Shown: positions 1 through 63,200 of the stretch, piece after piece | Position numbering within the stretch: position 1 is the first letter of the stretch | Layout: each line of letters starts with the position of its first letter | Virus genome (UHGV): UHGV-1350217 | DNA length: 64,000 nt | From: a virus | Strand: one strand, 5' to 3' | Notes under the pieces: model-generated | What the model was told of the DNA's origin: nothing | The model's database searches: none | Seen by the model: the letters and a program-made list of their open reading frames with translations, nothing else | Made by a program: the position numbers and the translations under genes

Positions 1-3000
1 TGCTGATAAACTTCTAAAAGATGAAAGTAAAGAGTTTAGAAGTAAGTTTGTAAATGCTTCAGAGCAGCTTCCTGAGTTTAAGACTATAGATGATTTATTA
101 AAGACTATTGAAACTTATCAAGAGCATAGTATCTATGCTAAAGCACCTGCTTATAGTACAGATAAAGAGATAGAAGCTAAACCTAAGACAAAGTCTGAAA
201 CAGAGAAACTACTAGAGAATATAGATAAGAGTTTAAAGAATCTAGCTAATAGAGATAATGCTATTAATGAACATACTGGAGTAGAAACAAATCAGTCAGA
301 TGAATTAGATAATGTTTCAGATGAGTTAAAGACTGATATAACTACTCTAGGTAGTCCAGATACTGCACTGAACGATAGTGATGAAGCTATTAATAAACTT
401 ACTAATCAACTAGAGCTTTTATACTCTGCTAGTGATAATACATCAGTAGCTGATGCTATGATAGAGCTAGGTAGAGAATACAATATATCTAATGCTCAAA
501 TAGATTTTAGTGTTAGTATGATTAATAATCTCATAGCTCCTAAAGACCAAGCTAGATTCTTTAAAGACTCTTTGAAAGTCTATATCTCTAGAGATACTAA
601 TAGTAATACCTCAGGAACATTTACATTTAGTCCTACTAAAGACTTAGATAGAATATATCTAAATGCAGGTAAGACTAGTGCAGCAGGTAATAACATAGTA
701 GAGACCTATCTACACGAGTTAATTCACTCTATTATAGAACACGCTATAGCTGAGGGTAATCAAGAAGTAATCTCTGCTATGAATAAAGTAGAACAGCTAA
801 GAGATACTTTCTTAAAGACTCTAAAAACTAATGATGATAAATTGCTATTAGCCAATGAGTTAGGAATACAGGGTTCTAATGAGTTTAAACTAGAAGTAAT
901 CCAAAAGTCTTATATAGATTATATGTCTGAGAATCCTAATGAGTTTATAACTATAGGATTATCTAACCCTACTATCTTTGCTAGATTAAAAGCTATAGAA
1001 GTATCTAAACCTTATGAAGGTATTATAGATACTATTATTCAAGCTGTAAAGAATGCTCTAGATGCTATTATGAATAGACCTCTAGATATATCTCAAACAT
1101 CTAATACAGCTGCTGAAGCTTTGTATAAACTAACACAAACTATAGCTAAGAATAATAATAAGCTATATGATGAATATGTTAGTGCTAGAAAGAAAACTCT
1201 ACTTCAAAAAGTAGCCAATACTCTAGATAAAGCTAGCAATACTATGGTATCTAGATGGATAGATGATAAGAAAATTAAGCTATTAACTTCTAATAAACCT
1301 GATAGTACTAGCAGATTTAAGAACTTAATAGCACTATGTAAGATACTACCATTTGCATTGAAAAATCCAGTCTTAGGCAAACAAGCTAGAGAATATATGG
1401 GTAATGCCTTTAATCTAGGTTGGGGAGGATTTATATCTCAGACATTCTCATCTATGACTTCGCTAGATGATTATAAAAGAACAGTCAATACTCTAATAGC
1501 TGAAAGTCAAGATAACGATAAGAACAGAATATTGACTTTTAATGCTTTGCAAAAACAGCTAAGAGATGCCTTTAAGACTGAAATATCAGATGAAAATGCA
1601 AAATCCTTAGGTAGAGTAATTCTAACTAATGACTTAATCTCTGTATTCCCTACAGCTAAAGAGTTCTATACTGAATACTCTAGCCTAGATAAAAAAGAAA
1701 GAGACGCTAAGATAGATAAAGCTATCAAAGATGCTTCTATTAGACTAAGAGAGTTTGCTTATTTCAAGAATGGCAAATATAATCTAGGGTTACATCAGTT
1801 CTATGTTAATCAAGCTACTCTACTAGGAGAGTCTATAGCTACAGGAGAATATAACTATAATCAAGCTACTAATGCTCAGAATATAGCTCTAGGACTTAAC
1901 TATGAAGGAGTTAAGAGAGGAACAGCATTAGAGCCTAGAGATATTAATAGAGATGAGTTAATACACCTAATAGATAAAATAGCTACTCTAGAAGCTTTAA
2001 AACATACAGATGAGAATGCTATAGCAGACTTTAACTATCTATATAATACAGAGAAAGATGGAGTAGAGAATATCTTTACTATGCAGAAAGTCTATGCTAA
2101 AGGCTTAGAGGATGAACTAAAACTTCAAAACTCTGATGTATCTAATAAAATCAAAGGCTATACTAGAAGCATATCTAATAGAGCTGTAGACGTACAGATA
2201 GCTAGACTAATAGATAGAGATGATATGCTAAAGCAAGGCTATGAATTAGTCCAAGAATATAACGGCATAGGAGTAGATAGAGATGCTCTAGGTATGTATG
2301 TATCTAGAACTAACGTTAAACCTGCATATAATAGAGGTGTCTTTAGAACTACAGGAGGTTCTAATAGAGGTCTTACTATTACCTCTAGTGTAGATTATCT
2401 ACTAGAAGGTAAATCCCTAGAGGAAAAGAATGCTTATATTCAGAATATACTACGTAGAATACAACAAGGAAAGATAAATGGTAAGTTTGTACCTATCTAT
2501 GATGCTAGAGGTGTAGTAATAGATTATCGTATGATGATACCTCAAGCTATCAAAGAACAGCTAGAGTTTACAGATACTAATGTATTTAATGTAATTCCTA
2601 CTATGGTAGCTAGATATTGGGATAAGACAGAGAGTGATGCTTTCAATAAAAAAGCCTTGAATGAGTTACACTCAATGTGGCTAAAAGATAGAAACACTAA
2701 TAACTTCATCTATCTAGGTGCTGAGGATATGGAAATTATGAATAGAGCTAGTAATGGTAAATCTAGAATTAAACCTAAAGATTTAGAAAAACTCAAGGAA
2801 TCTTGGGATTTACTACCTCAAAGTACTAAAGCTTATATCTATGAGCAATTCCCTGATATGCATCACGGTATCTATATCAGAGAGGATTTACTAGCTTCTA
2901 TAGCAGGAAGTAGAGATATTAGACTTACAGAAAGTGAAGCATTTAAACGTATAGTTCCAGATAAAGCTAATCAGCATTTAGCTAACCTAGTAGAGTTTGG

Positions 3001-3928
3001 TATTATCAAACTAGCTAAGCAAATAAGACAGAAACTAGTAGTTAAAAATCCTGAAGTTATCCTAGGTAATATTGCTTCTAATCAGTATATTCTAACGTCT
3101 TATGGTATAACTCCTATGCAGACAGCTAAATACTTTGGAGAAGGAATAGACCTAATAGATAAATACAATAGAGATAATGAAGCTTATCTATCAGCCTATA
3201 GAGCTTATAAGTTAAGCAATAATGACCTTAGATTAAAGAGAAAGTATGAAATATATCTCAAAGCTATGCAAGATAACCCTATCTATGAGTTTGATAAGAG
3301 AGGTTTAATATCAGATATTACTGATGAATTACCATCTCAAAATGATATGGATAAAGACTTCATAGATAAAAAACTTACAGAGACTGCTGATAAGCTAGCT
3401 ATACCTCAAGCATTTAGAGATGCCTTTGATGTATTAATGGTCAATGAAGGAACTCAATTACATAAAGCTTATAGTACAGTAATCAAATACTCTGACTTAC
3501 TAGCTAGATATTCTCTATGGAAGCATCTAATGGCTAATAAAGGTAAAGATGATAGTACTATCAAGACAGATACAGAAATATGGGATTTATTAGATAAGGC
3601 ATTTATTAACTACTCTACACAAGACCATCCATATCTAAAATATGCTAATGATATAGGTTTTGCTAGATTTACCAAATATTGGATTAGAGCTCAGAACTAT
3701 ATAGCTAATGGTCTGCTGGGTACCAAACTAGCTACTACTATGCTATCACTAGCTACACAAGCTATGACAGGTATAAAGATAGAAAGCCCGTTGAATGTGA
3801 TATTAGGCAAAAAGCTATTTGGCTATCATACATTTACATTGCCATTAGTAGATGATATAGCTGAGATAGTAGCTGACCCTATTAATCTAGACAATCCATT
3901 GCAGTATATTAATAGCTACTTTAAATAA
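1..3928 (+). CDS. 3' portion (at least 1309 codons) of a giant ORF that is open from window position 2 and stops at 3926-3928. Probably the C-terminal part of a giant virion protein, an N4-like virion RNA polymerase (vRNAP) candidate.
   Basis: Frame 2 reads without stops from nt 2 to the listed ORF start at 458 and on to TAA at 3928. Codon usage matches the rest of the phage. Same strand and frame continuity with the giant ORF at 57261-64000. The gene upstream of it is convergent. No catalytic motif recognised in this part. Confidence 0.5.
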   Translation, partial: ADKLLKDESKEFRSKFVNASEQLPEFKTIDDLLKTIETYQEHSIYAKAPAYSTDKEIEAKPKTKSETEKLLENIDKSLKNLANRDNAINEHTGVETNQSDELDNVSDELKTDITTLGSPDTALNDSDEAINKLTNQLELLYSASDNTSVADAMIELGREYNISNAQIDFSVSMINNLIAPKDQARFFKDSLKVYISRDTNSNTSGTFTFSPTKDLDRIYLNAGKTSAAGNNIVETYLHELIHSIIEHAIAEGNQEVISAMNKVEQLRDTFLKTLKTNDDKLLLANELGIQGSNEFKLEVIQKSYIDYMSENPNEFITIGLSNPTIFARLKAIEVSKPYEGIIDTIIQAVKNALDAIMNRPLDISQTSNTAAEALYKLTQTIAKNNNKLYDEYVSARKKTLLQKVANTLDKASNTMVSRWIDDKKIKLLTSNKPDSTSRFKNLIALCKILPFALKNPVLGKQAREYMGNAFNLGWGGFISQTFSSMTSLDDYKRTVNTLIAESQDNDKNRILTFNALQKQLRDAFKTEISDENAKSLGRVILTNDLISVFPTAKEFYTEYSSLDKKERDAKIDKAIKDASIRLREFAYFKNGKYNLGLHQFYVNQATLLGESIATGEYNYNQATNAQNIALGLNYEGVKRGTALEPRDINRDELIHLIDKIATLEALKHTDENAIADFNYLYNTEKDGVENIFTMQKVYAKGLEDELKLQNSDVSNKIKGYTRSISNRAVDVQIARLIDRDDMLKQGYELVQEYNGIGVDRDALGMYVSRTNVKPAYNRGVFRTTGGSNRGLTITSSVDYLLEGKSLEEKNAYIQNILRRIQQGKINGKFVPIYDARGVVIDYRMMIPQAIKEQLEFTDTNVFNVIPTMVARYWDKTESDAFNKKALNELHSMWLKDRNTNNFIYLGAEDMEIMNRASNGKSRIKPKDLEKLKESWDLLPQSTKAYIYEQFPDMHHGIYIREDLLASIAGSRDIRLTESEAFKRIVPDKANQHLANLVEFGIIKLAKQIRQKLVVKNPEVILGNIASNQYILTSYGITPMQTAKYFGEGIDLIDKYNRDNEAYLSAYRAYKLSNNDLRLKRKYEIYLKAMQDNPIYEFDKRGLISDITDELPSQNDMDKDFIDKKLTETADKLAIPQAFRDAFDVLMVNEGTQLHKAYSTVIKYSDLLARYSLWKHLMANKGKDDSTIKTDTEIWDLLDKAFINYSTQDHPYLKYANDIGFARFTKYWIRAQNYIANGLLGTKLATTMLSLATQAMTGIKIESPLNVILGKKLFGYHTFTLPLVDDIAEIVADPINLDNPLQYINSYFK

Positions 3929-3936
3929 TATAAAAA

Positions 3937-3985
3937 CCCCTCTAGTAAAGGAATATGAAACGAACAACATAGAAACCTAGAGGGG
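3937..3985 (-). terminator. Long-loop hairpin (9-bp stem CCCCTCTAG / CTAGAGGGG, about 31-nt loop) in the convergent gap between the giant ORF stop and the HU-like gene stop. Candidate transcription terminator.
   Basis: Perfect 9-bp GC-rich inverted repeat read directly in the sequence. A T-run follows on the minus strand (AAAAA precedes the stem on the plus strand). Located where the plus and minus transcription units converge. Confidence 0.3.
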
Positions 3986-4080
3986 AAATTAAGGAAGTTA
4001 CATAATCTTGGATAGAGCCCTTAGGACGTGTTACTAGCTGGGGAGTAAAGCTCTATTACTGCTAGAGAACCAAGACAACA

Positions 4081-4344
4081 TTATTTTACCATACGACGAA
4101 GTCTTTTGCAAGCTCTAAATCTAATAACATTGATTTTATAGTCTTTTTTATTTGTAAAACCACCTGCACCAGTTCGTTCGGTAATTCTAAAAGTACCTAG
4201 ATTAGCTATCTTAACATTATCTCTTTTGAGTAAACCTTTGCCTATCTCATCGATTAACGCATTAATTACTAATCTAACATCTTTCTTAGTAAAGTTAAGC
4301 TTGTCAGCAACATTAGCAGCTAAATCCTCTTTATAAATAACCAT
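4081..4344 (-). CDS. HU/IHF-family histone-like DNA-binding protein
   Basis: Sequence MVIYKEDLAANVADKLNFTKKDVRLVINALIDEIGKGLLKRDNVKIANLGTFRITERTGAGGFTNKKDYKINVIRFRA matches the HU fold pattern (GxF arm, RNP...K). The true start is the internal ATG at 4344, preceded by AGGAGA 6 nt upstream. The track's start at 4386 is an upstream artefact. Confidence 0.75.
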   Translation of the reverse strand: MVIYKEDLAANVADKLNFTKKDVRLVINALIDEIGKGLLKRDNVKIANLGTFRITERTGAGGFTNKKDYKINVIRFRACKRLRRMVK

Positions 4345-4588
4345 AAAGAATCTCCTCATAGTGAAATATAAATGGAAGTATAGCATAAATGAAAGGGATT
4401 AAACTCTCTTAGATGATTTATGACAAATAAAAGCGTGAAATTAATTCTTAAGGAGCGAGAATCTAATCCCTAGATTATATGTTCCAATGAACACATAATT
4501 TAGAAATCCCTCTAGAATAGGGGAAACTAGAGAGATTCTCGAAAAGGACTATTCACTCTATGAAAGAGTGAACGTATTATACCATAAA

Positions 4589-5272
4589 TTAGAATGGTAA
4601 ATTAGATGTATCTGTAGAAGGAGTCGATGTAGCAGCTTTAGAGCCGTTTAGGAAAGCTTCTACTTCCTCTTTAGTTAGATATTTATCTATCTTATCTTGA
4701 TGAGCATACTTCTCATCCTTGGCTAGTTGAGTACCTGCTGGAATAGATTTATCTAGTATTTCACTAGCGTGAACTCCATCAGTAGTATAGAAATCTTGAA
4801 TAACAAACTTCTTTTTAATCTGTCCATTATATTTGCTAATATCTCTTCTAATTCTAACTTTTACTTTAGCACCTTCAAAGTCTTGTAAGACTTTAATCTC
4901 TGGAGCTACTAGTTGCTTAGCAGCTTCAGCATTTTTTTTATAAGTAAAGTAAGGGTCTTGGTCTGTAGCTACTGCTACCTCATCTACTTTAAGTAAATCT
5001 ACTCCTAGAATAGTAGCTAGTCTAATAAAGATATTCCTCTCAAAGTTAGCTTTTCCATCGTTATTATCTAGCTTTAATCCCCATAGAATACCTTTATTAC
5101 CATTGTAGTCATATAGAAAGTTTAAGCTTCTAGCTTTATCAGCATTTCTACTTACTACTACTGCTTCTATAGTGATATCATAGATACCACTCTCACTAAT
5201 ATAAGGACTAAACTCCTTAACCTTAACTGCTTCATTGATGTCTGCTACATCATTTTTACTAAATAATGCCAT
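4589..5272 (-). CDS. Hypothetical protein. Possible single-strand DNA-binding or recombination mediator, by its position next to the ATPase/exonuclease module.
   Basis: 227-aa ORF with phage-typical codon usage and no recognisable motif. The functional guess rests on position only. Confidence 0.45.
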   Translation of the reverse strand: MALFSKNDVADINEAVKVKEFSPYISESGIYDITIEAVVVSRNADKARSLNFLYDYNGNKGILWGLKLDNNDGKANFERNIFIRLATILGVDLLKVDEVAVATDQDPYFTYKKNAEAAKQLVAPEIKVLQDFEGAKVKVRIRRDISKYNGQIKKKFVIQDFYTTDGVHASEILDKSIPAGTQLAKDEKYAHQDKIDKYLTKEEVEAFLNGSKAATSTPSTDTSNLPF

Positions 5273-11088: not shown

Positions 11089-11588
11089 AGTTCCATATCT
11101 CCAAACTCTTTAATGAATACATTTAGGAATACTTGGTCTTTGGATATATCTCTGACTAATCTCTCAGGATATCTAAACCACCTATTAACTCTACTCATAT
11201 GAGCTTCTAAAGTACAATATTGAAGCTCTGGATATTTCTCATATAAATGTCTAATAGATTCAGTCTCAGTAGGATACTTAGAAGTAGCTATATAGTAATA
11301 CTTCTGTAAAGACATATAGAGCAATTCCATATAATCCATATAAGCTTTATATCTATCATAGTCTAGTAATAGAGTAAGCCTATTCTCACTAAGATTTACT
11401 CTCTTAAGCCATTGAAACCAAGGTTGAAGTTTCTTATGATATCTACTTATCCAGCATAGATAGTTAGAATCTAAGTCTCTCTTAGTCCAACTAGGATTAT
11501 CCTCTTTCATAGCATATCTTAGTCTTTTCCAATTATGCTCAGCTATAGTAGTTAATAACCATAGGTCTTTTAATCTATCTGAAATCAT
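11085..11588 (-). CDS. Paralogue family member 3 of 3 (about 168 aa)
   Basis: Shares W..W, NRWF and EFG motifs with the two upstream ORFs. Confidence 0.55.
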   Translation of the reverse strand: MISDRLKDLWLLTTIAEHNWKRLRYAMKEDNPSWTKRDLDSNYLCWISRYHKKLQPWFQWLKRVNLSENRLTLLLDYDRYKAYMDYMELLYMSLQKYYYIATSKYPTETESIRHLYEKYPELQYCTLEAHMSRVNRWFRYPERLVRDISKDQVFLNVFIKEFGDMEL

Positions 11589-12097
11589 ATCTCTCCAAAC
11601 TCAGCTATACAAGCTGTTAGAAATCTCTTTTCTCTATCAGGTCTTTTATAATTCTTAGGGATACCTAGAAACCATCTGTTAATTCTGCACATCCAAGCTC
11701 CAGCTTTTATAACTCTCATATCAGGATATTTAGATAATAGAGTATTAACTAAACTCCAGTCTGACTTATGAGTTTCTCTACCTTTATAGTAATACTCTTG
11801 ACATAGCTCATATAGCAATTCTACATATTCTCTATATAGCTCTACAGCTGTCTTATTAATATATAGCTTTATCTTAGAGTAACTATTAGAATCTACTTTT
11901 CTAATCCAATTAATATAGGGATAGTACTTATCTCTATATCTCACAGACCAAGTAGCGTAGAAAGCAGTAGATTCTTTTCTAGATAGACCATTAGGATATA
12001 AACTATGCATATATGTAGATACAGGTATCCAAGAGTTATCTAGTGGAGTATCTAGTAATTTTTCTAACTCCTTTAATCTAGCAATCTTTGAACTCAT
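11585..12097 (-). CDS. Paralogue family member 2 of 3 (about 170 aa)
   Basis: MSSKIARLKELEKLLD...SWIP...RINRWFLGIPKNY...EFGEI is clearly alignable with 12094-12600. Confidence 0.55.
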   Translation of the reverse strand: MSSKIARLKELEKLLDTPLDNSWIPVSTYMHSLYPNGLSRKESTAFYATWSVRYRDKYYPYINWIRKVDSNSYSKIKLYINKTAVELYREYVELLYELCQEYYYKGRETHKSDWSLVNTLLSKYPDMRVIKAGAWMCRINRWFLGIPKNYKRPDREKRFLTACIAEFGEI

Positions 12098-12600
12098 ATT
12101 ACTCCAAACTCCTCTATGCAGTATTTAATGAATAGAAGTTCTTTACTAGCGTCTCTATAAGTATTAGGCACTCCTAAAAACCATCTATTCATTCTAGCCA
12201 TCCAAGTTCTAGGTTCTAATAGACTCATCTCAGGATAAGCTCTTATCATATATGTAATAAACTTCCATTCTGAATCATATCTCTCTAGACCTTTGTAGTA
12301 ATAAGCTTGAGCTATCTCATAAACTAACTTGCAATATTCATAGAATCTATTGACTGCATTTTTATTAATAAGCAATACTCTTTTAGAGTCATTAGGATAT
12401 TCATACTTAAGCCAATTACTCCAAGGAGTTCTATTATGAAATAATCTCTGAGACCACATAGAGTAATGATTATCGACAGCTCTATGAGTTCTATACTCAG
12501 GATGAGTTAAATGTATATATTCTCTAATAGGAATCCAAGAGTCATCTATAACATCTAGTTTACTCTCTAATTCTCTTAGTTTAGTAATCAGTGAACTCAT
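12094..12600 (-). CDS. Paralogue family member 1 of 3 (about 168 aa)
   Basis: MSSLITKLRELESKLD...SWIP...RMNRWFLGVPNTY...EFGVI. The three copies are tandem with 4-nt ATGA overlaps. Confidence 0.55.
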   Translation of the reverse strand: MSSLITKLRELESKLDVIDDSWIPIREYIHLTHPEYRTHRAVDNHYSMWSQRLFHNRTPWSNWLKYEYPNDSKRVLLINKNAVNRFYEYCKLVYEIAQAYYYKGLERYDSEWKFITYMIRAYPEMSLLEPRTWMARMNRWFLGVPNTYRDASKELLFIKYCIEEFGVI

Positions 12601-13105
12601 ATTTACTATTATCTCCCTCTATAGAGTAATTAACTACAAATGAAGTGAGATATATCTCAAATCGTCTCTTGAAAGCTTTAATAATACCTCTAGGAACAGA
12701 ATTAGGAGTATTGAAGCTAATAATGGCATTATTATCCTCTCTAGTAATCTTAACATTACTAGCATTTAATTTACAACCCCAATTAGCTTCTCTCCAAGGT
12801 CTCCAAGTAGGATAACCATAAAGTTCTATATTTCTTAAGACTTTATCTCTATATTCTAAGAAGTTCTCTAAAGATAAGCCTCTTACTTGTAATATATCAG
12901 CCATCTCTTTTTCATCTCTATTCTCTCTATATTCTATAGCTTTCTGAGTCAAATCACCACTTAGAATATCTAGGCTATCAGGCATAGGAATGAGTTTATT
13001 AAAATCAAAGTTTGAATCACAAGATTTAATAGAATCTAAGATAGTATCAAGATTATTAGAGCTTTTAGCAGTAACTATTAATGTATTTGATACTTCTACT
13101 GACAT
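12581..13105 (-). CDS. Hypothetical protein
   Basis: 174-aa ORF. Confidence 0.45.
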   Translation of the reverse strand: MSVEVSNTLIVTAKSSNNLDTILDSIKSCDSNFDFNKLIPMPDSLDILSGDLTQKAIEYRENRDEKEMADILQVRGLSLENFLEYRDKVLRNIELYGYPTWRPWREANWGCKLNASNVKITREDNNAIISFNTPNSVPRGIIKAFKRRFEIYLTSFVVNYSIEGDNSKYEFTDY

Positions 13106-13419
13106 TAATATCCCCTATTATAGTTATAGAACTGTTGATTTCTCATCTGCTGTTCTTGAAGCATTCTTTGATACTCCATTTGCTGTCTTTGCAATTCCAT
13201 CTGCTGTTGCATTTGCTGTTGTTGTCTTTGCATATCAGCTTGCATTCTAAGTTGGTCTGCTTGATTTTGTAGTTGTTGATATGTCATATTATGCTTGTTA
13301 TGTAAGTTTTGCCAAAACATCTGACTTTCTAACTCTTTCTGTTGGCAAGCATAATCACTACTAGCACAAGAAGCAAATAGACTACTAGCTACTAAAGCTA
13401 TTAAGATTAATCCTTTCAT
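13105..13419 (-). CDS. Gln/Met/Arg-rich lipoprotein (signal peptide plus lipobox LFASC)
   Basis: MKGLILIALVASSLFASC signal/lipobox, then low-complexity QQQMQQQMELQRQQMEYQR. Confidence 0.5.
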   Translation of the reverse strand: MKGLILIALVASSLFASCASSDYACQQKELESQMFWQNLHNKHNMTYQQLQNQADQLRMQADMQRQQQQMQQQMELQRQQMEYQRMLQEQQMRNQQFYNYNRGY

Positions 13420-13421
13420 TT

Positions 13422-13811
13422 TTATCTCCTTTTATTACATTTAATACCAGCTTTTCTAAGCAACTTAACTCCATCTTTATCTAGATTGAGTAACTCTTTA
13501 TACCATACTTCTTTTACTGTTCCAGATTGAATAATTGCACTAGCACAATTAACACAAGGAGCATAAGAGCAATAAAGTATAATCTCATCACTACCTCTAT
13601 AATTAATCAAGCAATTAACTTCTGCGTGAATTACTGTAGGTAGAGTCCTTTTATTCTCATCTCTAGTAGGCATATTTAATGCACTATCATTAAATCCTAC
13701 AGATACTAGTTTATTATTACTAACCGCTATACAAGCTACAGGTCTAGTATCTCTACTATATTCCTCAGCATTTTTAACTAATTGCCATATAAATGAACTA
13801 ATATTCATCAT
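13422..13811 (-). CDS. dCMP/cytidine deaminase-family zinc enzyme
   Basis: HAEVNCL and YCSYAPCVNCASAI zinc-binding motifs (H-A-E ... P-C-x-x-C). Confidence 0.7.
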   Translation of the reverse strand: MMNISSFIWQLVKNAEEYSRDTRPVACIAVSNNKLVSVGFNDSALNMPTRDENKRTLPTVIHAEVNCLINYRGSDEIILYCSYAPCVNCASAIIQSGTVKEVWYKELLNLDKDGVKLLRKAGIKCNKRR

Positions 13812-18827: not shown

Positions 18828-19379
18828 TTAACTCTTAATTACTCTATCTACTACAGGTTTAATATTAGATAATAGTAATATTATGATACTTTCAGTATTT
18901 ACATTGCTATCACAATTAATTATATAATCTACACCACTATTAGTATTTATTCTAATAGTATTACCTAAATCTTTAACACTCTCATCAGTTAGGTTTATAA
19001 AAACTGATTGAGTATCAAAAGAGTAATATACTCTAGGTATATAAGATGTCTCTCTTAATACTGAACTTAATTCTTGACGTAGATAAGTTAACTCATCTTT
19101 TACATTTTCTAGATACTTACTAACTATATTAGATAGCTCATTAAACTTATCTGTTTTATGAGGATATCCAAATAATACATTATCATAGAAATTATTCACT
19201 GTATCTGTACCATTTGCTAATAATGGCTTAAATAAAAATAACATACCTCTTACAGCTTCTAACTTATCATCTAAAGCTAAATAAGATACAGTATTATCTA
19301 CTCTCAATTTATCTAGTTTATAGATATCCTCTTTAAACTTCTCTGTTAATTGTATTATATTCATTAATGTGTCTCCCAT
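18828..19379 (-). CDS. Hypothetical protein (paralogue of 18296-18817)
   Basis: See the partner ORF; similar length (183 vs 173 aa). Confidence 0.45.
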   Translation of the reverse strand: MGDTLMNIIQLTEKFKEDIYKLDKLRVDNTVSYLALDDKLEAVRGMLFLFKPLLANGTDTVNNFYDNVLFGYPHKTDKFNELSNIVSKYLENVKDELTYLRQELSSVLRETSYIPRVYYSFDTQSVFINLTDESVKDLGNTIRINTNSGVDYIINCDSNVNTESIIILLLSNIKPVVDRVIKS

Positions 19380-20416
19380 TGATTTTTACCAAACTTAGGT
19401 TCTCCGTGAACAGGGTATTTTAGACCTAATTCATAGCTAGTATCTATAAAACTCTGTTCTAATATTGAACCAAACTCCTCTTTAATTTCAGGTCTAATCT
19501 CGAAACTAATAGCATCGTGAACATTTAATATATAAGCAAAGTCTTTATCATACTTATACTTACTTCTTAAGATATTGTCTATATGAACTAATAAATACTT
19601 CATATAAATAGCTCCAGCAGATTGTAATAGTAGATTTAAAGCACTATGAGGACTTCTACAATAAAGCTTCCTACTATCTAAACCATAGAGATTATCTGCC
19701 ATAGCTTTAGCGGTAGAATCCTCTACTAGGTCATTATAACCTTTAGTACCACTTTTAAATCTACTAGTAAGTTTAGTAGCATAGATAGTAGCTTTAATTA
19801 ATTCGTCATCTACTGGAGCATATTGAGTTTTATTAACTGGATAGTAAAGCTTTCCATTAATCTCTTTACTTCTAGAGGATATACTATCAGATGCTATAGC
19901 ATATTCATCACTAGTATAATCAAACTCTTGACCTTTATAAAGCATATGACCTAGCTTAGTCATACCTGCACCATATAAAGTGGCATAAATAAAGATTTTA
20001 GCAGCATCTCTAGTATCTAATCCAGCTATTCTTTGATTTACAGTATGAACGTCAGTACCCTTAGACTTATCTCCGTGTTCTACAACTTTAGCATAGTAAT
20101 AATTGTCGTATTTACTGAGATAATGACCTAACATCACTAACTCTAAAGCCGAAGCATCTACATCCACAAAAACTCTACCTTCAGGAACACATATTAATTC
20201 TCTCATAAACTGGTCTTTACTAAGTTGTGTCATATTAGGGGAATTGTGTGTCATCCTTCCAGTATTCGCTCCGAGACTATCTACTTTACCGTGTATTCTA
20301 TGAGTATTGGGATTATAACAATTCATAAAACTACCAGCTCCAGTACATAGCATACTAAGGTCTTTATTAGTCTTTAGATAGTCTTTTAATAAACTCTTAG
20401 CTTCGTTTAATTCCAT
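19364..20416 (-). CDS. Family A DNA polymerase, C-terminal half (fingers/palm with motifs A, B, C)
   Basis: Motif A DVDASALELVMLGHY. Motif B RDAAKIFIYATLYGAG. Motif C VHDAISFE. The N-terminus MELNEAKSLLKDYL aligns with T7 gp5 QAAIDLIKEYL. Own GGAG Shine-Dalgarno and ATG at 20416. Confidence 0.85.
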   Translation of the reverse strand: MELNEAKSLLKDYLKTNKDLSMLCTGAGSFMNCYNPNTHRIHGKVDSLGANTGRMTHNSPNMTQLSKDQFMRELICVPEGRVFVDVDASALELVMLGHYLSKYDNYYYAKVVEHGDKSKGTDVHTVNQRIAGLDTRDAAKIFIYATLYGAGMTKLGHMLYKGQEFDYTSDEYAIASDSISSRSKEINGKLYYPVNKTQYAPVDDELIKATIYATKLTSRFKSGTKGYNDLVEDSTAKAMADNLYGLDSRKLYCRSPHSALNLLLQSAGAIYMKYLLVHIDNILRSKYKYDKDFAYILNVHDAISFEIRPEIKEEFGSILEQSFIDTSYELGLKYPVHGEPKFGKNQWETH

Positions 20417-20670
20417 ACCATACTCCTAGTAGCAAGCATTGTCCTAGTAGAAATCCTAATAGATATATGATGTTTTTAAGCCAAATAACACGTTTCTCAA
20501 GCTCTTGAATATAAAGGTTAGTACTTATACTAGTACTAATATTATTATCGCTTAGAGTGCATTCTTTTGCATTTAAAAGGCTATATATCATTCGTTGTAA
20601 ATCTACTTGTTCTTTCTGCATAGTTTCTATACTTAACATCCTAGTTCTAATTAACGTCAAATCAGAGGAT

Positions 20671-21732
20671 TCATTCGCCATCAGACTCATCACTAGAGTC
20701 AAACTTACTATCAAGTGTCTCAGCATTTACGACTATATTTCCTTTCTCAGTAAATACTACTGGTTTCCAATTATAGACTCTCATTAATCTATCAGCTATT
20801 TGTTGTCTGCTAGACGGATTAAATACTTGAAGCTTTAACTTTTGATAAGTACAACCTTCAGTAGTGATAACATCTATAGTTCTAAAAGGTTTATCTCTTA
20901 GAATACCCTTATACTTTACAAATCTACCATTCTTGCCTATAGGGAGCTGATATTTAGGCGTAAAGATACCTAGAGGTTTAGTAGAGTCTAATATTAGCTT
21001 CTTAATACTAGACCTCTTAGGAATTATCACATCACCATCAGCTACTAGCATAGGAGGGAATTGCTTTCTAAGCTTTTGCTCTAAACCTATAGAGTGCATT
21101 TGTAATCTAGCTGATTCTTTTCTAGCTTTATCTATATCAAAATAACAACCATATTCCTGTTGGTCAAAGATAATAGAAGCTACTCTATATTCACACTCTC
21201 TGATAGACTTAGATGGGTATCTTTCTTTCTTGATTAACTCATTATAAAGCATATAAGTTACATCTACATCTCTTTTACAATAAGTCATCATTTCTTGATT
21301 TAATCCATTAGCAAAATCGTCATAATCTAACTTAACTAAACCTAGTCTAAATCCAAAAGCTTTAATGCTATAACTACCATATAAACTAGGAGGTATTACA
21401 GCTCTAGATTTATCAAACTCTGCTAATACGTCTTTAGGTAGAGTAAGCTTAGCATCTATTAGAGTATCTATTAGACTCTTATCTTTAATCTTACCTAATA
21501 GACGTTCTATAATAGGAATATCAAACTTACAGATATTATGACCTATAATTATATCAGCTGAATCTAGTATAGCCTTAGCTTCGTTTAATAAGCCATCTGA
21601 ATTATTTACTTTTTCACAAGTATATATCTTAGTAGGATTACTATCTATCTTTAAGGCTATACACCATATATGCTCTATATTCTTTACTAAGTCCACTAAT
21701 GGACTTGTTTCGATATCAAATACTACCTGCAT
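20671..21732 (-). CDS. Family A DNA polymerase, N-terminal half (3'-5' exonuclease domain plus start of the polymerase domain)
   Basis: Exo I FDIETS, Exo II HNICKFDIPII. C-terminal NPSSRQQIADRL...WKPVVFTEKGNIVVNAETLD aligns with T7 gp5 NPSSRDHIQKKL...WVPTKYTDKGAPVVDDEVLE. Ends with TGA at 20671-20673. Confidence 0.85.
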   Translation of the reverse strand: MQVVFDIETSPLVDLVKNIEHIWCIALKIDSNPTKIYTCEKVNNSDGLLNEAKAILDSADIIIGHNICKFDIPIIERLLGKIKDKSLIDTLIDAKLTLPKDVLAEFDKSRAVIPPSLYGSYSIKAFGFRLGLVKLDYDDFANGLNQEMMTYCKRDVDVTYMLYNELIKKERYPSKSIRECEYRVASIIFDQQEYGCYFDIDKARKESARLQMHSIGLEQKLRKQFPPMLVADGDVIIPKRSSIKKLILDSTKPLGIFTPKYQLPIGKNGRFVKYKGILRDKPFRTIDVITTEGCTYQKLKLQVFNPSSRQQIADRLMRVYNWKPVVFTEKGNIVVNAETLDSKFDSSDESDGE

Positions 21733-22159
21733 AGTTATGAGTTCTATAAGGTCTAATATAAATCACAAAGTTCTTTTCTGTAGCTCTATAGCAATTTATA
21801 ATCTGACATTTATATTTATACTTAGCTAATTCCTCAGCAAATATATTTCTGATTAGCTTAGTAGTATAAGTACTATCACTAACTATAACATCAAATCTAA
21901 TAGACCCCAGTTTCTTTTTACTTTGAGAATAATGCCTAGTAAAGATTTCGATAATACTAGAATTACGTTCTAGTATATCTCTGCATAATATATTCCATTC
22001 TGGCATTTCTACGCTCTTATTTATAATCGTATCTATATAAGTCTGTAAATCTATTCTTGTATCTTTCTCTATACTCTTACTAGGTTTAAACCATAGAAAT
22101 ACGATAGCTACAGAACAGATTATAATCAATACAGCAGGTATTATTACAAAATCACTCAT
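21716..22159 (-). CDS. Hypothetical membrane protein (N-terminal TM helix)
   Basis: IIPAVLIIICSVAIVFLWF hydrophobic segment; 147 aa. Confidence 0.4.
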   Translation of the reverse strand: MSDFVIIPAVLIIICSVAIVFLWFKPSKSIEKDTRIDLQTYIDTIINKSVEMPEWNILCRDILERNSSIIEIFTRHYSQSKKKLGSIRFDVIVSDSTYTTKLIRNIFAEELAKYKYKCQIINCYRATEKNFVIYIRPYRTHNYAGSI

Positions 22160-22309
22160 TTTCTAATCTCCTTTTCGATAATCGAACAATTACAGTCTTT
22201 CATATTTTCTAAGATACTTAGTCTCTTGTACTCTATTACAGTATTAGATATTAAACCTGCAATACCTATAACTAAAATTGTAACTGCAAAATAGAAGTCT
22301 ATATTACCT

Positions 22310-22495
22310 TTAATCATCTTTACTATCCTTTTTGATTGAGCAATTACATTCAGTTAATGTATCTAGAGTTTTCTCTAATACTTTAACTTTTTGATTATTT
22401 ATTACAAGTATTGCAATTACTCCAGCTATAGTTAGTATGAGTAGTGCTCCTAATGTAGAAAAAAGTGCTAGTAAAGCATTATCCATTTCTTTCAT
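22310..22495 (-). CDS. Small membrane protein with a C-terminal CNCSI motif
   Basis: 61 aa with one TM helix. An unlisted neighbour at about 22165-22320 (minus strand, about 52 aa) also has TM plus CNCSI. A 42-aa TM ORF lies at about 22490-22618. Confidence 0.35.
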   Translation of the reverse strand: MKEMDNALLALFSTLGALLILTIAGVIAILVINNQKVKVLEKTLDTLTECNCSIKKDSKDD

Positions 22496-22612
22496 TCCTT
22501 TCCCTTTCTATACGTTTTTTAGTATTATCTATAAACTCATAAAATTTATAAGAGTAATAAACACCACGAACAATCCAGAAAAGCACCATAAATACTAATA
22601 ATACTTCAAATA

Positions 22613-23398
22613 TCATTCTATGCCTTCTACTGTATATAGTTCACTAAGAATATCTTTATAAGTCTCTAGTAATGTCTCTTTAACAAACATAAACTTAATA
22701 CCACTAATAAGCTTCTTATCTAGTTTATGCTTCTTTACTAAAGCTTCTAGATAGTCTTTAATCTCAGCTACTGTCATAGACATAAACTTAACCCTATTTA
22801 CTAGTCCTGGAATATCTTTTAAGTCATCTAAAATAGCTTCTAATTCTCCATAATCATCTTCTGGCTCTAGAGTATGTTCTGTATGATAAAAACCATAACC
22901 AGGAGTACTTCTATAAGCAGGATATACATAAGTCTTAGTATCTAGGTTTTCATCAAAGATACAATCAGTATCTGGTTCATAATCTATAGTATTCCATAAT
23001 TTAGTTAGATTATCAATGAAGTTATTATCTAAGATACTGTCATCAAAGCCATTATAGACTATATAAGGATTACCTTCTATGAACTTAGGCTTTATATCTA
23101 GTATCTTTTCAGCTTCATTAGGTTCAATAGACATATCATTATCTTTAACTATGGCTATACACTTACCTTTACTATAGGTCATAGTATCTCCAACTAAAGT
23201 AGCTAATCTAGCCTCTGTATGCTTTAGCTCTACTCTACCACTATGATGGTCTACAATAGAGCTAACTGATACTATATTCTCACCACTAGCTAATGGAAAT
23301 ACTATTCCAGGTTTAGTTAGGCTAGTATTTAAATCAGTACCACTAAAGGACTGACCATCTACTTGGTCTACACTATTTGTCTTTAGGTATTTTCGCAT
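22613..23398 (-). CDS. Hypothetical protein
   Basis: 261-aa ORF. Confidence 0.45.
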   Translation of the reverse strand: MRKYLKTNSVDQVDGQSFSGTDLNTSLTKPGIVFPLASGENIVSVSSIVDHHSGRVELKHTEARLATLVGDTMTYSKGKCIAIVKDNDMSIEPNEAEKILDIKPKFIEGNPYIVYNGFDDSILDNNFIDNLTKLWNTIDYEPDTDCIFDENLDTKTYVYPAYRSTPGYGFYHTEHTLEPEDDYGELEAILDDLKDIPGLVNRVKFMSMTVAEIKDYLEALVKKHKLDKKLISGIKFMFVKETLLETYKDILSELYTVEGIE

Positions 23399-57189: not shown

Positions 57190-57260
57190 TTGTGTATTAA
57201 ATATATTCTTATTCTTTCACTATAATACTGCTAAACTTAAACTAATTTAAGGATAGCAGT

Positions 57261-60200
57261 ATGTATAATGAAAATGATGAAAATCAACAAGAATATAATA
57301 AGCCTACTTCTAAAGATAAATCTAGCAGTATCTCTTTGATGAATACTCTCTCTGATGCTTTTAAGCAAAATGGAGGGGTACCTCAAGAGCTAGAGAACTC
57401 TACAGTTAGAAACTTCTTTAATACTAATTATGCTCCTATATTCAAGCCAGCTAATCAAGTTAAAGCTGAAAGAGCTACAGAAGTTGTTAAAGATATATTA
57501 CAACGTCAAGGATTTCCTTCTACTCCAGAGGATGATGCAGCAGCTAGAATAGCAGCAGATACCACATATGCTCCTCAATATCAACAACTAGAACTTAATG
57601 AGCAAAGATTAGATTTAATTTCTCAAAAGAATAAGCAAGATTTAGACAATGCAGAGCATATGAATAAACTAAAGCTACTAGATGCTCTAAGTCCTCAAGC
57701 ATTAGCTGATATAGGTTATGGAAGTAAAGGTAGCTACTCTATGTCTCCAGAGGAAAGAGCAGCATATGTTAGAAAAATGACAGCTGACCCTTATAAACAA
57801 GCTATGCAACTAGCTGAAATAAAAGCTACAGATGATAGACTTAAAGCAGCTAGAGGTCTAACTATTATCAATGACTTAAATGATAGGTTTAAAATAGAAC
57901 AACAAAGGGAAGCTCTCAACAGAGATAAAGAGAATCTTACTACTGATTTAGCTTCATTAGCTTCATATAATAACTATATGAAAGAGATTAATCCTGCTTT
58001 CACTTCTACTACCTTTGAGACAGGTAATCCTCTAGAAAAAAATCCTGATTATTCTATTACTGCTAATATTGCAGACCAATGGGGAGAGTTCTATAGAGAT
58101 ACTTTAGGTGTAGGACAACTAGCTAGTGAAGGTGCTAGTGATTTAGCTAAGCTAGCTGTTAGAAAAGCTAAGAACTGGAATAAATCTGTATCTGATATAG
58201 CTACAGAAGTTTTACAAGAGGATTATGAGCTAAATAAACAGAGACAAGCAGGTAAATCTACAGGTCATCCTATAGATGATTTTCTAGCTGGAGCTATTAG
58301 AGGTTCAGGTAAAGCAGCTAAAGACAGAAATGCAGTTAATAGATTTACTATTGATTTAATGAAAGCTGATTATGATGCTTCTGATGGAGCATTATCTACT
58401 GTTAAAAATATAGGAGGAGATTTACTAGGAGCTTCAGGACAATTTATAGCTGGTTCAACTCCTGAAGTACTTAGTGCTTTGGTTCCTGGAGGACTAGTAA
58501 ATAAAGCTACAGAGAAAGCTGCTGCTAAATATGGTGAAAAAGTAGCTATGGAAGCAGCTGGTAAAGATTTAATTAATGCTACTAGAGCTACTACAGAAGC
58601 TCTTGATAAACTTAAATCTACAGCTCCTAAAGCTATGACTGACAAAGTAATTGCTGAAGTTCCTAAGAGAAATGAACTCTTTAAAGCTATGCAAGATAAG
58701 TTTAATCAAGACTTTAGAGCTATTAAAAAGTCTACAGATTTAACTAGAAAAGAGAAACTAGAGAAACTTCAAGCTTTAAGACGTCAAAGAAATGTAGAAC
58801 TTACAAGTACAGAGAATAATAATCTAATCAAAGCCTATGCTAAAGCTACAGATGCTGAGAAAGCAAGAATGCTATCAGCTTATAAAGAGTCTTTAAAAGA
58901 GAATGGCTTTAAAGAAGCTAATGCAGCAGCATTTAGAAGTGAATATGCAGCTAATAAAGCTTTACATACTAATGCTATATCTAAAGTAGAGGAAGCTAAT
59001 AAAAAACTAGCTGATACTATGGAGAAATATCATATAGACCCTACTACTAGAACTATCTCTGATAAAGGTAAAGAACTATTAGGTAAAGAGTTTGCAGCAG
59101 AGTTTCAAGCTAATAGTAAAAGATATAGTCCATTAGCTAATGCCTTTAGAACTCTTACCCCTACTGCTGCAGTAGTCGCTGAAAGAAATGCTAGACAAGC
59201 TATGGCTAATAGATTAGGTATAGATGAAAGAGACTTAGTTCAAGTAGTAGATAGTGGAGACTTTATCTCTAATATGCCACTAGCATATGTCTATTCAGCT
59301 CTAAATACACTAGAGGCTACTAACCTACTAGAAGGAGCTTTTAAAGGAGCAGGACTTAAAGATATATTTAGTACTACTAAGAAGTTCCTTACAGGTGTAG
59401 ACGACACTACTATAGCTGCTACTAAGCAAGCTACTAAAGAAGCAGCTTCTAGGACTATGAAAGAAAGAGCATCTGAACTAGCTACTAGACTCAAAGATAA
59501 GCCATTAAAAGAAGTTAGAGATATAACTACTAAAATGTTTGGTCTAGCTTCTAAGACTTTAAAAAGTACTGCTAAAGTAGCAGGTAAAAGAGGTCTATAT
59601 GGTTTTGCTAATGAAGGAACTGCTGAGTTCTTACAAGAGTATTCAGAGCAATTACAGCAAAATGGCTTTAATCTACAAGAGATATTAAATCCTCAAACAC
59701 TAGAACAAGCTAAAGAAGCAGGATTAATAGGAGGTCTAACTGGAGGAACTACAGGTACTCTAAGTACTGGAAGTCATCTAGTTAGAAATGTCTATGATAA
59801 AGGTATTAAACCTCTAGCTACTTCTCTTAAAGATAAATGGCTAGAGCATAAAGAAGCTAAAGCAGATGAAAAGACTGAAGCTACTAGAACTACAACTAAC
59901 TATGAAGCTTCACATAACAATGATGGTTCTGTTATAGCTAATACTACTAGTCCAGCTAAAGTAATTGAGGATAGTCTAAATACTAATCTAAATAATAATA
60001 CTATTAAGAAAATAGCTTCAGAAGCTCAAATAAGACAAGCTAAGAAAAACCAAGATTTCTTTGATAATGATAAACCTAAGACTAAAGCAGATATAGATAG
60101 ACATACTGATGACTTAATGCAAGAGTATAAATATGCTCCAGAGAAAAGACCAGAAGTAAGAGATGCTGTAGTAAATACTGCTGTATCTAGAAATGCTGTA

Positions 60201-63200
60201 GATTATACTGCTGATGAATTGAAAGATTTAGGAGTTAATGATGAAACTATAGCTAGATATGGTAATATCAATCTACAATTACAAGATACTCTTACTGATA
60301 ATTATAAAGTTTCAGATGTAACTAAAGATTGGAATATACCTACTGAGAAACTTACAGAGATACAAGACTTTATACCTAGTCTAGATAAATTAGATAAAGA
60401 TACTTTCAAAGACCTTACTAATGAACAGAAAGCCTTAGTATTAGATGTATTAAATAATAAAGCTGTAAAAGTTAAACCTGAGAATATCACAGGTAGAGTA
60501 TATACTCCATCATTCTCTACTGATGAGAATCCTATAAAACTTAATGTAGAGCATAAACTTACAGATACTGGAGATTTAGACTTATCAGACTTTGCTGAAA
60601 GAGCTAAGAACTTAAATAAAGCCTTTAATTATAATGCTGATACAAATAAGAAAATTACTAGTACTGATGCCTATTATGGATTAAATGAGTTAAGCTTCTT
60701 ACTTACTAATGCTAATAGTAATAATATAGCTACTAAAGAGGAGGATATCACTTCTGAAAGTAATAACTCACTTCTTAAGTCTTTACATAATATAGGTACA
60801 GCTATAGGTAAAGGAGAAGTAGATAAGCTAGAAGGTAATGATAGACAAGTCTTAGAAGGTTTAAAACAGTTAATTAAAGATGGAGCTATCAAGAATAAAG
60901 AGAATCAAGTAGTTAGTCTAGGTAGTGCAGAGAAACTACTAGATGAAGTAGATAAATATGCTAAAGTAGAACTAGAAAAAACTACTCCTGTTACTGATGA
61001 ATTGTCTACTAATCCTAAGTTTAAAGACCAAGGTTCTCAAGCTATTAATAAAGTCTTTCATTCACAGAATGACTCTTTAGATACAAAAACTTCTGAGTTT
61101 GTTATGACTGCTCTAGGTGTAGCTGATATAGCTCAAGCTAGTAGTGTTAATATCAAAGTTATGAGAAAGAATCAAGCTATTAATATGGAGGATGTATCCT
61201 CTGATATAGCTTCTACTGCTGCTAGAATAGTCAATAAGTTAAATGCTGTTATGCACGATATTATGCTTACTAGAGCTGAGAAAGCTAAGGCTTATAGATA
61301 TCTAATGAGTCAGTTAAAAGAACTTACTGTTAGAGTTAATTCTAAAGTTTCAGCTATTAATTCAGTTCGTAATAAAACAGGTCTATTAGATGACTTAAGA
61401 AAAGACCTAAAAAGAAAGCTAGAAAGCCAATCAGAAAATAAGACTGATGAGCAAATATCCAAAAGTGTAGAGGATATAATTAATGACCAATATATTCTTG
61501 GTACTGAAGGTTTCTCAGCTGTAGTAATAGAGATACCATATAAAAATCCTAAAGGAACTAAATTACTTAATGATCTTAGTCCTGCGGAGTTAAGTAAAAA
61601 TCTAGATTTAAAATTAGTACCTAAAAAGTCTTTCTCATTTAATAAAAGAGAACAAGTTACTACTGAGGATATAAATGCTTATAATAGCAAGTATAGTAAT
61701 GGAGAACAGTATTATCTAATAGCTAAAATAGATAAGAATAATGGAACTATTAGCTTTGACCAATCTGAGGATAACTCTTTAGCTTTACTACAGAATGCTA
61801 TTATTAATGACTCTAATCTATTATCTAAGGCTTTAGAGCTATTCACTGGAGTTAGGGAAGCTTTTAGTAATACTACTCTAGGTACTTTACTAGACCCTAA
61901 AGCTATAGATGAAGGGTATTTATTTAATCTACTAAGACAATATGATACAGCTTCTATTAAGACAGATGAACAGATAGAAGTTTTAAAAAATAACTATAAG
62001 AAATTACTAGAAAGTGATACAGCTACTCAAGAGGAAAAAGATAATGCTCTAAAAGATTTGTCTTTATATGTTGTACCTATTAAAGATAATCAAGGTAATA
62101 TAGTAAAAGATCAATATAGACGAATTACTAAAGCTGATGTTAATAAGAACATTCAAGCCTTTATGAATAACTCTATTCAAAGTATGGCTTTATCTCAAAA
62201 GAGAATGTTAGCATTAAGGACTATATTAAAGAATCCTGTTCCAGCAGTAGCTGATAGATTTAAATCTCTTATTCCTGAATTAGCTGATATGCAAGTACTA
62301 GATAGCCCTTCTATTATAGTTAAATTAAGAGATATCTATGAATGGTATAAAAGAGACTTTGAAATAGCTAAAGCTCAAATGGCTTATTTACTATCAGACA
62401 ATCCTGATGAGATAGCTAGACTAATGCTAGCTATGAAATATATAGAGCAAGAGACTGTAAGAAAAGAACTTGGTAGATTAAGCCAAAGTGAGTTTAATAA
62501 AGTTCGTATGCAGGGATACTCTCAATGGTCTGATAAGTTTAAAGTAATGCTTAGAAACTTCTATGGCTTTAATAAGAGCATAGAATATACAGAACAGCAA
62601 TTTAATTCTAAACTAGAGGAAGTAAATAAAACAAGAGAAGCTAGAGATTTGCCTAAAATAACTCTAGAGGAAATAGAGACTATGACTAAGCCTCTATTAA
62701 ATGATTTCTCCCCAGTTAGCATTATAAGCAATATGCAATCTCTTATGTCTATAGCAGCTTCTAAAGAGTTAGCTAAAGGATTTAAACTAAGTAATAACTC
62801 ACTTATGGATTTACTAGATGACTCTAAGTTAGACCTAAACAAATCAGATACTCTAGACTTTGATAGAAATCTCATAGGCTATGCTTATGATTTTAACCCT
62901 CTAGAAGCTAAAGGCTTTAAGTATTTTACTAATGGAAAGAATACTTCTATAGATTCTCTTAAACTAGGAGAATTGACATATAGTAATTTTAAAGATAGAT
63001 TGAATGCTTCCCTTATTAATAATGTTAAAAACTTTGAAAAGATGCCTAAAGGTCTATTTAATGATGTCTTTATATTCAATAAGGATGGCTCTATAAATAG
63101 TGTTAAAGAACCTTATACTAGAGCTATGTTTATGAGTCTAATGGAAACTATGACTAAAGGTGTTAATCCATCTCCTATTACTCTAGGTTCAGCTGAGACA

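Follow-up and report, generated by a model that had tools for sequence, protein, structure and literature searches.

The 64,000-nt stretch of the virus genome UHGV-1350217, called the window here, encodes a family A DNA polymerase in two pieces. Both genes lie on the minus strand, the upstream one specifying the exonuclease and the thumb and the downstream one the palm and fingers, and a third, small open reading frame (ORF) is embedded between them (Table 1). A polymerase divided over two ORFs had been proposed in the original prediction, and all the features listed there were found again by ORF and Pfam analysis. The three ORFs occupy three different frames, the distance from the TGA stop codon of the exonuclease gene to the ATG of the polymerase gene is exactly as predicted, and that ATG has its own GGAG Shine-Dalgarno (SD) motif. 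The small ORF overlaps the exonuclease gene by 56 nt and the polymerase gene by 20 nt. These overlaps, and the location of the SD motif inside the upstream ORF, suggest that the translation of the genes is coupled.

Table 1. Features of the split polymerase locus and of the genes that lie between the polymerase halves in related lineages
Locus	Feature	Position	Strand	Description
Window	Exonuclease and thumb half (N-terminal polymerase subunit)	20671-21732	minus	353 aa; Pfam DNA_pol_A_exo1 (PF01612)
Window	Small cargo ORF between the halves	20397-20726	minus	109 aa (94 aa if the start is ATG 20681); no Pfam or PHROG match
Window	Interval from exonuclease stop to polymerase ATG	20417-20670	minus	254 nt, all coding for the small ORF
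Window	GGAG Shine-Dalgarno motif	20423-20426	minus	6 nt 5′ of the ATG of the palm/fingers half (20414-20416)
Window	Palm and fingers half (C-terminal polymerase subunit)	19364-20416	minus	350 aa; Pfam DNA_pol_A (PF00476), 7e-23
Window	dCMP/cytidine deaminase gene	13422-13811	minus	Homologous to the cargo deaminases of relatives (tblastn)
L008, L011	Cargo			dCMP/cytidine deaminase, 128 aa
L007 (Campylobacter fetus subsp. testudinum)	Cargo			dCMP/cytidine deaminase, 152 aa
L009/L010	Cargo			54- to 64-aa ORF and deaminase
L012	Cargo			30-, 319- and 92-aa ORFs, the last on the reverse strand
L013	Cargo			91-aa ORF
L014	Cargo			150-aa ORF
L017 (Campylobacter concisus CCUG 19995)	Cargo			63- and 81-aa ORFs

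Residues 4-342 of the upstream protein, the N-half, align to residues 3-371 of T7 gp5 (phmmer) and comprise the 3′-5′ exonuclease domain and the N-terminal part of the polymerase domain, a thumb with an insertion resembling the thioredoxin-binding domain (TBD). The exonuclease motifs Exo I (DxE), Exo II (NxxxFD) and Exo III (YxxxD) are present as FDIETS, GHNICKFD and YCKRDVD, which align to T7 D5/E7, D65 and Y/D174, and 24 homologues show no variation at residues D6, E8, N66, D71, Y151 and D155. An insertion of ~70 residues occupies the TBD position at residues ~230-300. The AlphaFold2 (AF2) model of the N-half, built on a 24-sequence alignment, has a mean predicted local distance difference test (pLDDT) score of 83, with low values at residues 256-260, and its last helix stops at residue 341. 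The protein ends in an 11-residue acidic tail, KFDSSDESDGE, which is predicted to be disordered because residues 344-353 score below 50. T7 DNA polymerase chains are the best Foldseek matches of the model (E 1.5e-14). Across four genomes, the ratio of nonsynonymous to synonymous polymorphism (pN/pS) of the N-half is 0.13 in its own frame.

The downstream protein, the C-half, aligns to T7 gp5 residues 381-546 and 593-663 (phmmer, 704-aa numbering, E 2.5e-32) and holds all three polymerase motifs that the original prediction had placed there. Motif A is DVDASALE, with D87 corresponding to T7 D475; motif B is RDAAKIFIYATLYGAG, with K140 and Y144, and the Tyr of its FIYATLYG segment aligns to T7 FIYGFLYG at the Y526 position. 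Motif C is NVHDA (window 19514-19522, minus strand), with D301 corresponding to T7 D654. A TGR motif is found as ANTGRMTH. Among 25 C-half homologues D87, K140, Y148, H300 and D301 are invariant and Y144 nearly so, and pN/pS in the half's own frame is 0.11 (four genomes). The AF2 model has a mean pLDDT of 84, with 44-69 over residues 1-70, which form an N-terminal helix and the TGR region; such low scores in a half modelled alone are compatible with a segment that would pack against a partner chain. T7 DNA polymerase is the best Foldseek match of this model too (TM score 0.71, E 6e-18), and T7 gp5 is the best match in the PDB for both halves, by sequence and by fold. With its exonuclease motifs, motifs A, B and C, TGR motif and motif-B Tyr, the split enzyme belongs to the T7-like subfamily of family A polymerases.

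The two halves meet between the equivalents of T7 gp5 residues 371 and 381. By the domain boundaries of the gp5 structure, the break is at the thumb's C-terminal base and precedes the TGR motif by ~45 residues; its predicted location at the thumb-region junction was about right. The N-half closes with ...NPSSRQQIADRL...VVNAETLDSKFDSSDESDGE-TGA and the C-half opens with MELNEAKSLLKDYL. Single-gene polymerases of pelagiphages show how completely the two pieces cover the enzyme. When both proteins were searched against GenBank phages (tblastn), residues 1-342 of the N-half matched HTVC134P at 11429-12247 and residues 1-350 of the C-half matched it at 12248-13132, contiguously within one gene, and the same exact abutment was found in HTVC309P. 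The claim that no polymerase sequence is missing therefore holds.

Six independent assemblies have this three-ORF arrangement in common, namely the window and five relatives of its own lineage (L001, L002, L003, L097 and L098) taken from IMG/VR and other metagenome assemblies, whose polymerase halves show 80-96% protein identity. An alignment of ~530 nt over the junction in these six genomes contains no indel. Two frameshift errors in one continuous gene had been offered as one explanation of the locus, and three ORFs in three frames are the pattern that two indels would give. However, the six assemblies derive from different samples and have identical frames, ten more diverged lineages share the break, and ~290 nt at the site are without counterpart in any unsplit polymerase. 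The chance of an assembly or sequencing artefact is next to nil.

Related phages were also named in the original prediction as a source of evidence, and they do encode the polymerase as two genes, the split being kept down to 41% identity. When the exonuclease half was used as a query, 28 protein clusters matched it with 41-93% identity. They are stand-alone proteins of ~312-367 aa, save for P0027, which is a fragment of 216 aa from a contig of 1.2 kb. Fused proteins (~600 aa) are confined to matches with ≤34% identity to this half, and the clusters of the polymerase half at ≥48% identity are mostly ~350 aa long. The 11 lineages compared (the window's and the ten more diverged) share the alignment column of the break, and in each of them the ATG of the polymerase half is preceded by a purine-rich SD-like motif (AGGAG, AAGGA or AAGGAG, with a weaker AAGGT in L007). 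The halves are always adjacent and co-oriented across the clade, with 251-1521 nt from the exonuclease stop to the polymerase ATG.

The nearest unsplit relative, P0088/L016, is 39% identical to the N-half and 65% identical to the C-half over its first 137 residues. It shares the primase/helicase synteny downstream, and its reading frame continues unbroken across the site as ...TLEALPYENTNDLKDYL..., which places the fission inside this group of phages, in a stretch that is short, variable and acidic. Searches of GenBank phages at the DNA level gave only short matches of ~77-86% identity to pelagiphage polymerases, and the clade had no close cultured relative in GenBank (identity ≤37%). Another relative, L015 (P0067, 46-49% identity; 803-1591 and 3501-5063), is continuous over the split site and starts mid-protein at the exonuclease/thumb boundary. 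A reverse transcriptase (RVT_1) ORF lies upstream, and the polymerase gene may be interrupted in a different way here, perhaps by a group II intron.

What lies between the halves in the window had been described as a spacer of 254 nt. This label does not fit, for the interval falls entirely within a conserved protein-coding ORF, at a site that holds different genes in different lineages. The small ORF is intact in all six assemblies, with neither an indel nor a stop. Over the 254 nt that belong to it exclusively, pN/pS in four genomes is 0.18 in its own frame, which is free of stops; the other two frames give 1.98 and 0.83 and contain 10-12 stops each. Its variable sites in the six genomes are distributed over codon positions 1, 2 and 3 as 12, 7 and 23 (chi-square p=0.008). 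No synonymous depletion was seen in the interval, where the counts of 3-7 per 20 codons (leaving aside the short final segment) are within the range of the polymerase halves, and no promoter- or terminator-like site was found on the minus strand within 20397-20726. By this pattern of substitution, the interval reads as a protein-coding gene under purifying selection.

The product of the small ORF has a hydrophobic N-terminus (only if translation starts at 20726), a polar or helical middle and a transmembrane-like C-terminal helix followed by KRS. The hydrophobic tail that had been noted earlier is real, with a Kyte-Doolittle value of ~2.0 over residues 85-103. The product is probably a small, lineage-specific membrane protein, and we infer both this location and a function that probably has no connection with polymerase catalysis. 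Among 1.84 billion representative proteins, none outside its own cluster is homologous to it, and it has no paralogue within the window and no similarity to the cargo ORFs of other lineages or to gp14 of phage MEP401. The possibility that it is a degenerate deaminase was rejected: it contains no HAE/PCxxC motif, and a real deaminase gene lies elsewhere in the window. Its N-terminus resembles that of the 64-aa ORF of L009 (hydrophobic, then SE-S-D). This likeness was judged a likely by-product, since both ORFs run in the +1 frame over the end of the exonuclease gene, which is rich in GAT and encodes an Asp-rich tail. Directly upstream of the exonuclease half, at window 21716-22616 on the minus strand, four consecutive overlapping small ORFs of 147, 53, 61 and 45 aa each contain a transmembrane-like hydrophobic segment and, where tested, match no family, like the 109-aa ORF.

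A small self-splicing intron had been put forward as another explanation, under which the interval would be a group I intron and splicing would restore one chain. Its size (254-290 nt) fits minimal group I introns, and such an element does occur in the same gene of a relative. L003, which is 96% identical, has an ORF-less group I intron of ~325 nt in motif B (RF00028 at 1702-1985 of IMGVR_UViG_3300008152_000001, 87.2 bits, E 2e-22); it cuts at AKT|FIYATLYGAG, which corresponds to window ~19990 (minus strand). The further interruptions of the polymerase half in L007, L013 and L017, which lie near HNH_3 ORFs, also speak for introns in this gene.

Within the interval itself, the search for group I elements found nothing. 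No RF00028 match was obtained at E≤10 in a permissive Rfam scan of 19000-22500, nor at the gathering threshold over the whole window, and the same model readily detects the intron of L003, which serves as a positive control. Scans of nine related loci with Rfam at the gathering threshold were likewise without a match. The sensitivity of Rfam is imperfect, because the HNH-associated interruptions of L007 and L013, the two covered by the scan, gave no match either. The minimum free energy of the interval has a z-score of +0.22 against dinucleotide shuffles, so that its fold is no more stable than theirs. Unlike an intron, the interval evolves as coding sequence in a single stop-free frame, and the halves have their own stop, SD motif and ATG in all the lineages examined. 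A deaminase gene occupies the interval in L008 and L011 and leaves ~27-85 nt of non-coding sequence and no room for a ribozyme; the 24+3 nt that are non-coding in L008 exclude one there. Moreover, the break is in a variable surface stretch and not in a conserved motif of the kind that introns usually target. An intron at this site is highly improbable.

Elsewhere in the polymerase half, the L003 intron is polymorphic within the lineage, being absent from the window, L001, L002 and L097. In three relatives the polymerase half is broken into two or three more pieces (L007, 5476-7573; L013, 4326-6119; L017, 4890-7036). These breaks are at conserved motifs (TGR, motif A and motif C) with HNH_3-type ORFs nearby, and they are probably intron or homing-endonuclease insertions.

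The genes at the split site differ from one lineage to the next. Deaminases recur and are 36-80% identical to one another; the other cargo proteins are mutually unrelated. Neither Pfam and PHROG searches nor the ORFs of the related loci revealed a recognisable homing endonuclease among the cargo genes at the split site. The cargo deaminases of L008, L011, L009 and L007 match window 13443-13787 with 39-46% identity and E-values down to 7e-28 (tblastn). In the window, the deaminase gene lies ~5.5 kb downstream of the polymerase half, inside a block of ~20 extra small ORFs before the primase, a block that the sister lineages do not have between polymerase half and primase. Because a deaminase is found at the split site in three branches of a rough neighbour-joining (NJ) tree computed without support values, it may have occupied the site ancestrally and been displaced from it in the lineage of the window. 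The gene content of these loci suggests that the split site is a hotspot, a slot in which accessory genes have repeatedly lodged and been exchanged.

Embedded between the halves, overlapping both and under purifying selection, the small ORF could be thought to encode a functional third component of the polymerase, such as a tether, an assembly factor or a regulator. There are precedents for additional parts: in phage Aeh1, the split NrdA assembles through sequences that derive from an inserted mobile element (PMC3045599), and the split family B polymerase (PolB) of PhiKZ uses an extra subunit (PMC13648687). However, the small ORF is limited to one narrow lineage (the group at ≥80% identity), and in sister lineages that share the split its place is taken by unrelated genes. 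Since these lineages do without it, the split enzyme is unlikely to need it, and a role as third component is very unlikely.

These observations are most readily explained by a T7-like family A polymerase that is encoded by two genes and assembles from two subunits, with a fission site that has become a slot for variable cargo, and this we consider highly likely. An ancient fission would have cut the gene inside the polymerase domain, at the equivalent of T7 gp5 371/381. Subunit 1 would consist of the proofreading exonuclease and the thumb, and subunit 2 of the palm and fingers with all catalytic motifs of the polymerase. Each gene has its own start, stop and ribosome-binding site; coupled translation from one mRNA is probable, and the two polypeptides would join non-covalently into the equivalent of a single-chain polymerase. 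Their new termini, predicted to be short, acidic and disordered, would replace the short, variable and acidic stretch of unsplit relatives. The fission would thereby have created an intergenic site inside an essential, co-expressed pair of genes, open to accessory genes: in the window the present occupant is the lineage-specific gene of ~100 aa, whose product is probably a small membrane protein, and in sister lineages it is a deaminase or unrelated ORFs. The two-subunit polymerase of the original prediction is thus strongly supported at the level of the genes, by the six assemblies, by purifying selection and by a split that runs through the whole clade. Joining of the halves by a split intein was considered and rejected. 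In the reference 'fractured gene' arrangement, intein halves of ~100 and 35 aa are expected (PMC2677866); at the window's locus ~11 extra residues follow the N-half homology and ~4-8 precede that of the C-half, the frames differ and stops intervene.

Several points weigh against a two-subunit enzyme with a cargo slot. In motif C, HDA takes the place of the canonical HDE. The whole clade and its unsplit relatives also have HDA, which marks it as a trait of the subfamily; an invariant Glu five residues past motif C, E306, might replace the missing Glu of HDE. Variability at third codon positions is 0.25 in the small ORF against 0.36-0.37 in the polymerase halves, and this weaker enrichment implies that the constraint on the small ORF is moderate. 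The selection data for the small ORF come from six close genomes, effectively two or three sublineages, with 42 variable sites. Its start is uncertain and may be ATG 20726 (109 aa) or the conserved ATG 20681 (94 aa), which overlaps the exonuclease stop as ATGGCGAATGA. The NJ tree, which lacks support values, only hints that the split arose once, and both the formation and the activity of the heterodimer are inferred.

This last point also favours a different reading, in which the products work apart, as an exonuclease and a thumb-less polymerase, or are pseudogene fragments in a phage with another replicative polymerase. PHROGs does include families whose annotation is a separate 'DNA polymerase exonuclease subunit' (phrog_403). 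However, the cut is off the boundary between exonuclease and polymerase, with the thumb on the exonuclease half and TGR, palm and fingers on the other. Because the cut is not at a domain boundary, each piece falls short of a complete functional module. Strong purifying selection acts on both, their catalytic residues are invariant, and the pair is always adjacent and co-oriented in the clade. No other DNA polymerase was found among the window ORFs scanned with Pfam and PHROGs, which cover ~20 of ~74 ORFs. That the pieces work apart or are decayed is quite unlikely.

A stronger version of the cargo slot is also conceivable, in which the fission site would be a selected 'expression slot', the split would be caused and maintained by its cargo, and the cargo proteins would bind the two-subunit enzyme. 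We regard this as unlikely. If it were true, the accessory proteins would share the timing and stoichiometry of the replisome. The deaminase of most sister lineages would couple the supply of dTTP precursors to the polymerase, which it might bind, and the small membrane protein of the window could tether or localise replication.

The genome that carries the two-gene polymerase is N4-like (Schitoviridae-like). It encodes a giant virion RNA polymerase (vRNAP; phrog_2206, 7e-104), a primase (phrog_2135), a Dda-like helicase (phrog_325), a portal (phrog_1216), a major capsid protein (phrog_1357), an N4-type RNA polymerase (phrog_2166/2051) and a large terminase, and its GC content is 31.6%. A giant frame at 57246-64000 on the plus strand leaves the window at its end (2251 aa), and another at 1-3928 on the same strand enters at its start and is 1308 aa long; this second frame corresponds to the C-terminal portion of the N4 virion RNA polymerase (phrog_2206). 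These two end frames, and sister contigs of ~66 kb, indicate a circularly permuted genome of ~66 kb with a vRNAP of ~4000 aa. N4-type phages have a polymerase of the PolA type fused to a uracil-DNA glycosylase (UDG) (PMC10201439). Despite the N4-like architecture of the genome, the polymerase of the window is T7-like in its motif-B Tyr and in its best structural match, T7 gp5, and not of the N4-type UDG-PolA. A T7-like polymerase in an N4-like backbone suggests that the replicative polymerase has been replaced.

Members of the clade are found in assemblies of Campylobacter fetus, C. hyointestinalis and C. concisus. Campylobacterales are among the predicted hosts of uncultured N4-like viruses (PMC10654107), which fits this occurrence. 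C. concisus CCUG 19995 holds two copies of the element, L017 (NZ_NDYN01000010.1) and L018 (NZ_NDYN01000001.1), one on a 63-kb contig, the size of a phage genome, and the other inside a 565-kb contig. The two copies hint at an N4-like phage that is integrated as well as free, or in a carrier state.

The locus thus documents a natural and evolutionarily stable family A replicative polymerase that is cut within its polymerase domain and has been kept across an uncultured N4-like clade linked to Campylobacter. For the engineering of split or fragment-complementing T7-like polymerases, the position of the cut points to a permissive site, and the variety of genes found there illustrates how a fission site can turn into a hotspot of accessory-gene exchange. 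For annotators and for virome surveys based on PolA, it means that 'partial' polymerases of 350 aa can be complete subunits. For this clade, moreover, a small ORF between polymerase halves does not signify an intron, a question that had been raised for phages of the MEP401 type.

Split polymerases of family A were first described in cyanophages related to S-SBP1, where AlphaFold predicts that the pieces reassemble (Czernecki et al. 2023, PMC10201439), and they are also known from uncultured cyanophages (bioRxiv 10.1101/325100). As in the window, a T7-like family A polymerase of S-SBP1 is encoded by two adjacent genes that arose by fission, with neither an intron nor a programmed frameshift, and the new termini are predicted to be exposed to solvent in a complex predicted to reassemble. 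In S-SBP1, however, the cut is at the boundary of exonuclease and polymerase and came about through a +1 frameshift, the genes overlap, and no gene lies between them. In the window the cut comes ~170 residues later and falls within the polymerase domain, so that the thumb remains on the exonuclease half, and across the clade the halves are 251-1521 nt apart, with variable genes between them.

Closer in layout are the OM43 phages MEP401 and MEP402, which have a split PolA with a small ORF between the pieces and for which the authors left the question of an intron open (PMC10580990; OP830906). Here too the cut is inside the polymerase domain, the first gene encoding the exonuclease and the N-terminal part of the polymerase and the second its C-terminal part, with a small ORF without homologues between them. 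MEP401 belongs to an unrelated, Zobellviridae-like group of phages, however, and its cut is at a different point. Its gp15 begins with motif A (MILNADAKALE, which lines up with C-half residue 82) and its gp13 retains the TGR motif, which puts the cut directly before motif A, ~75 residues downstream of that in the window. The small ORFs of the two systems are unrelated, and it is the window's clade that has variable cargo, including a dCMP deaminase.

Group I introns are known from family A polymerase genes of phages such as SPO1 and the T7-like phages phiI and phiL7 (cited in PMC10580990). They too interrupt a phage PolA gene over a few hundred nt. Unlike these introns, the interval of the window has no ribozyme signature or stable structure, is coding and lies in a variable stretch.

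Beyond family A, the split family B polymerase of PhiKZ has been shown by experiment to form a stable 1:1 complex of DNAP-N and DNAP-C (PMC13648687). Like the window's enzyme, it is split within the polymerase domain and off the boundary with the exonuclease. However, its genes are not adjacent, the split is in a large insertion of the palm, and an additional clamp-like subunit takes part. In Aeromonas phage Aeh1, nrdA is split by the free-standing homing endonuclease gene mobE, a case of 'genes in pieces' (PMC3045599). Both there and in the window an essential enzyme is split by the insertion of a gene and its pieces are translated apart, to reassemble non-covalently in Aeh1 and, as we would expect, in the window's phage. 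The inserted gene of Aeh1 is a homing endonuclease, whereas no recognisable gene of this kind occurs at the split site in the window's clade, where the HNH ORFs lie elsewhere, in the polymerase half of some relatives. A split gp43, the PolB enzyme, was reportedly described by Petrov and colleagues in 2006 for some T4-related Aeromonas phages. Split family A polymerases are already known, and the split seen here is not a categorically new mechanism; what is new is a third independent fission point, and with it a slot for variable cargo.

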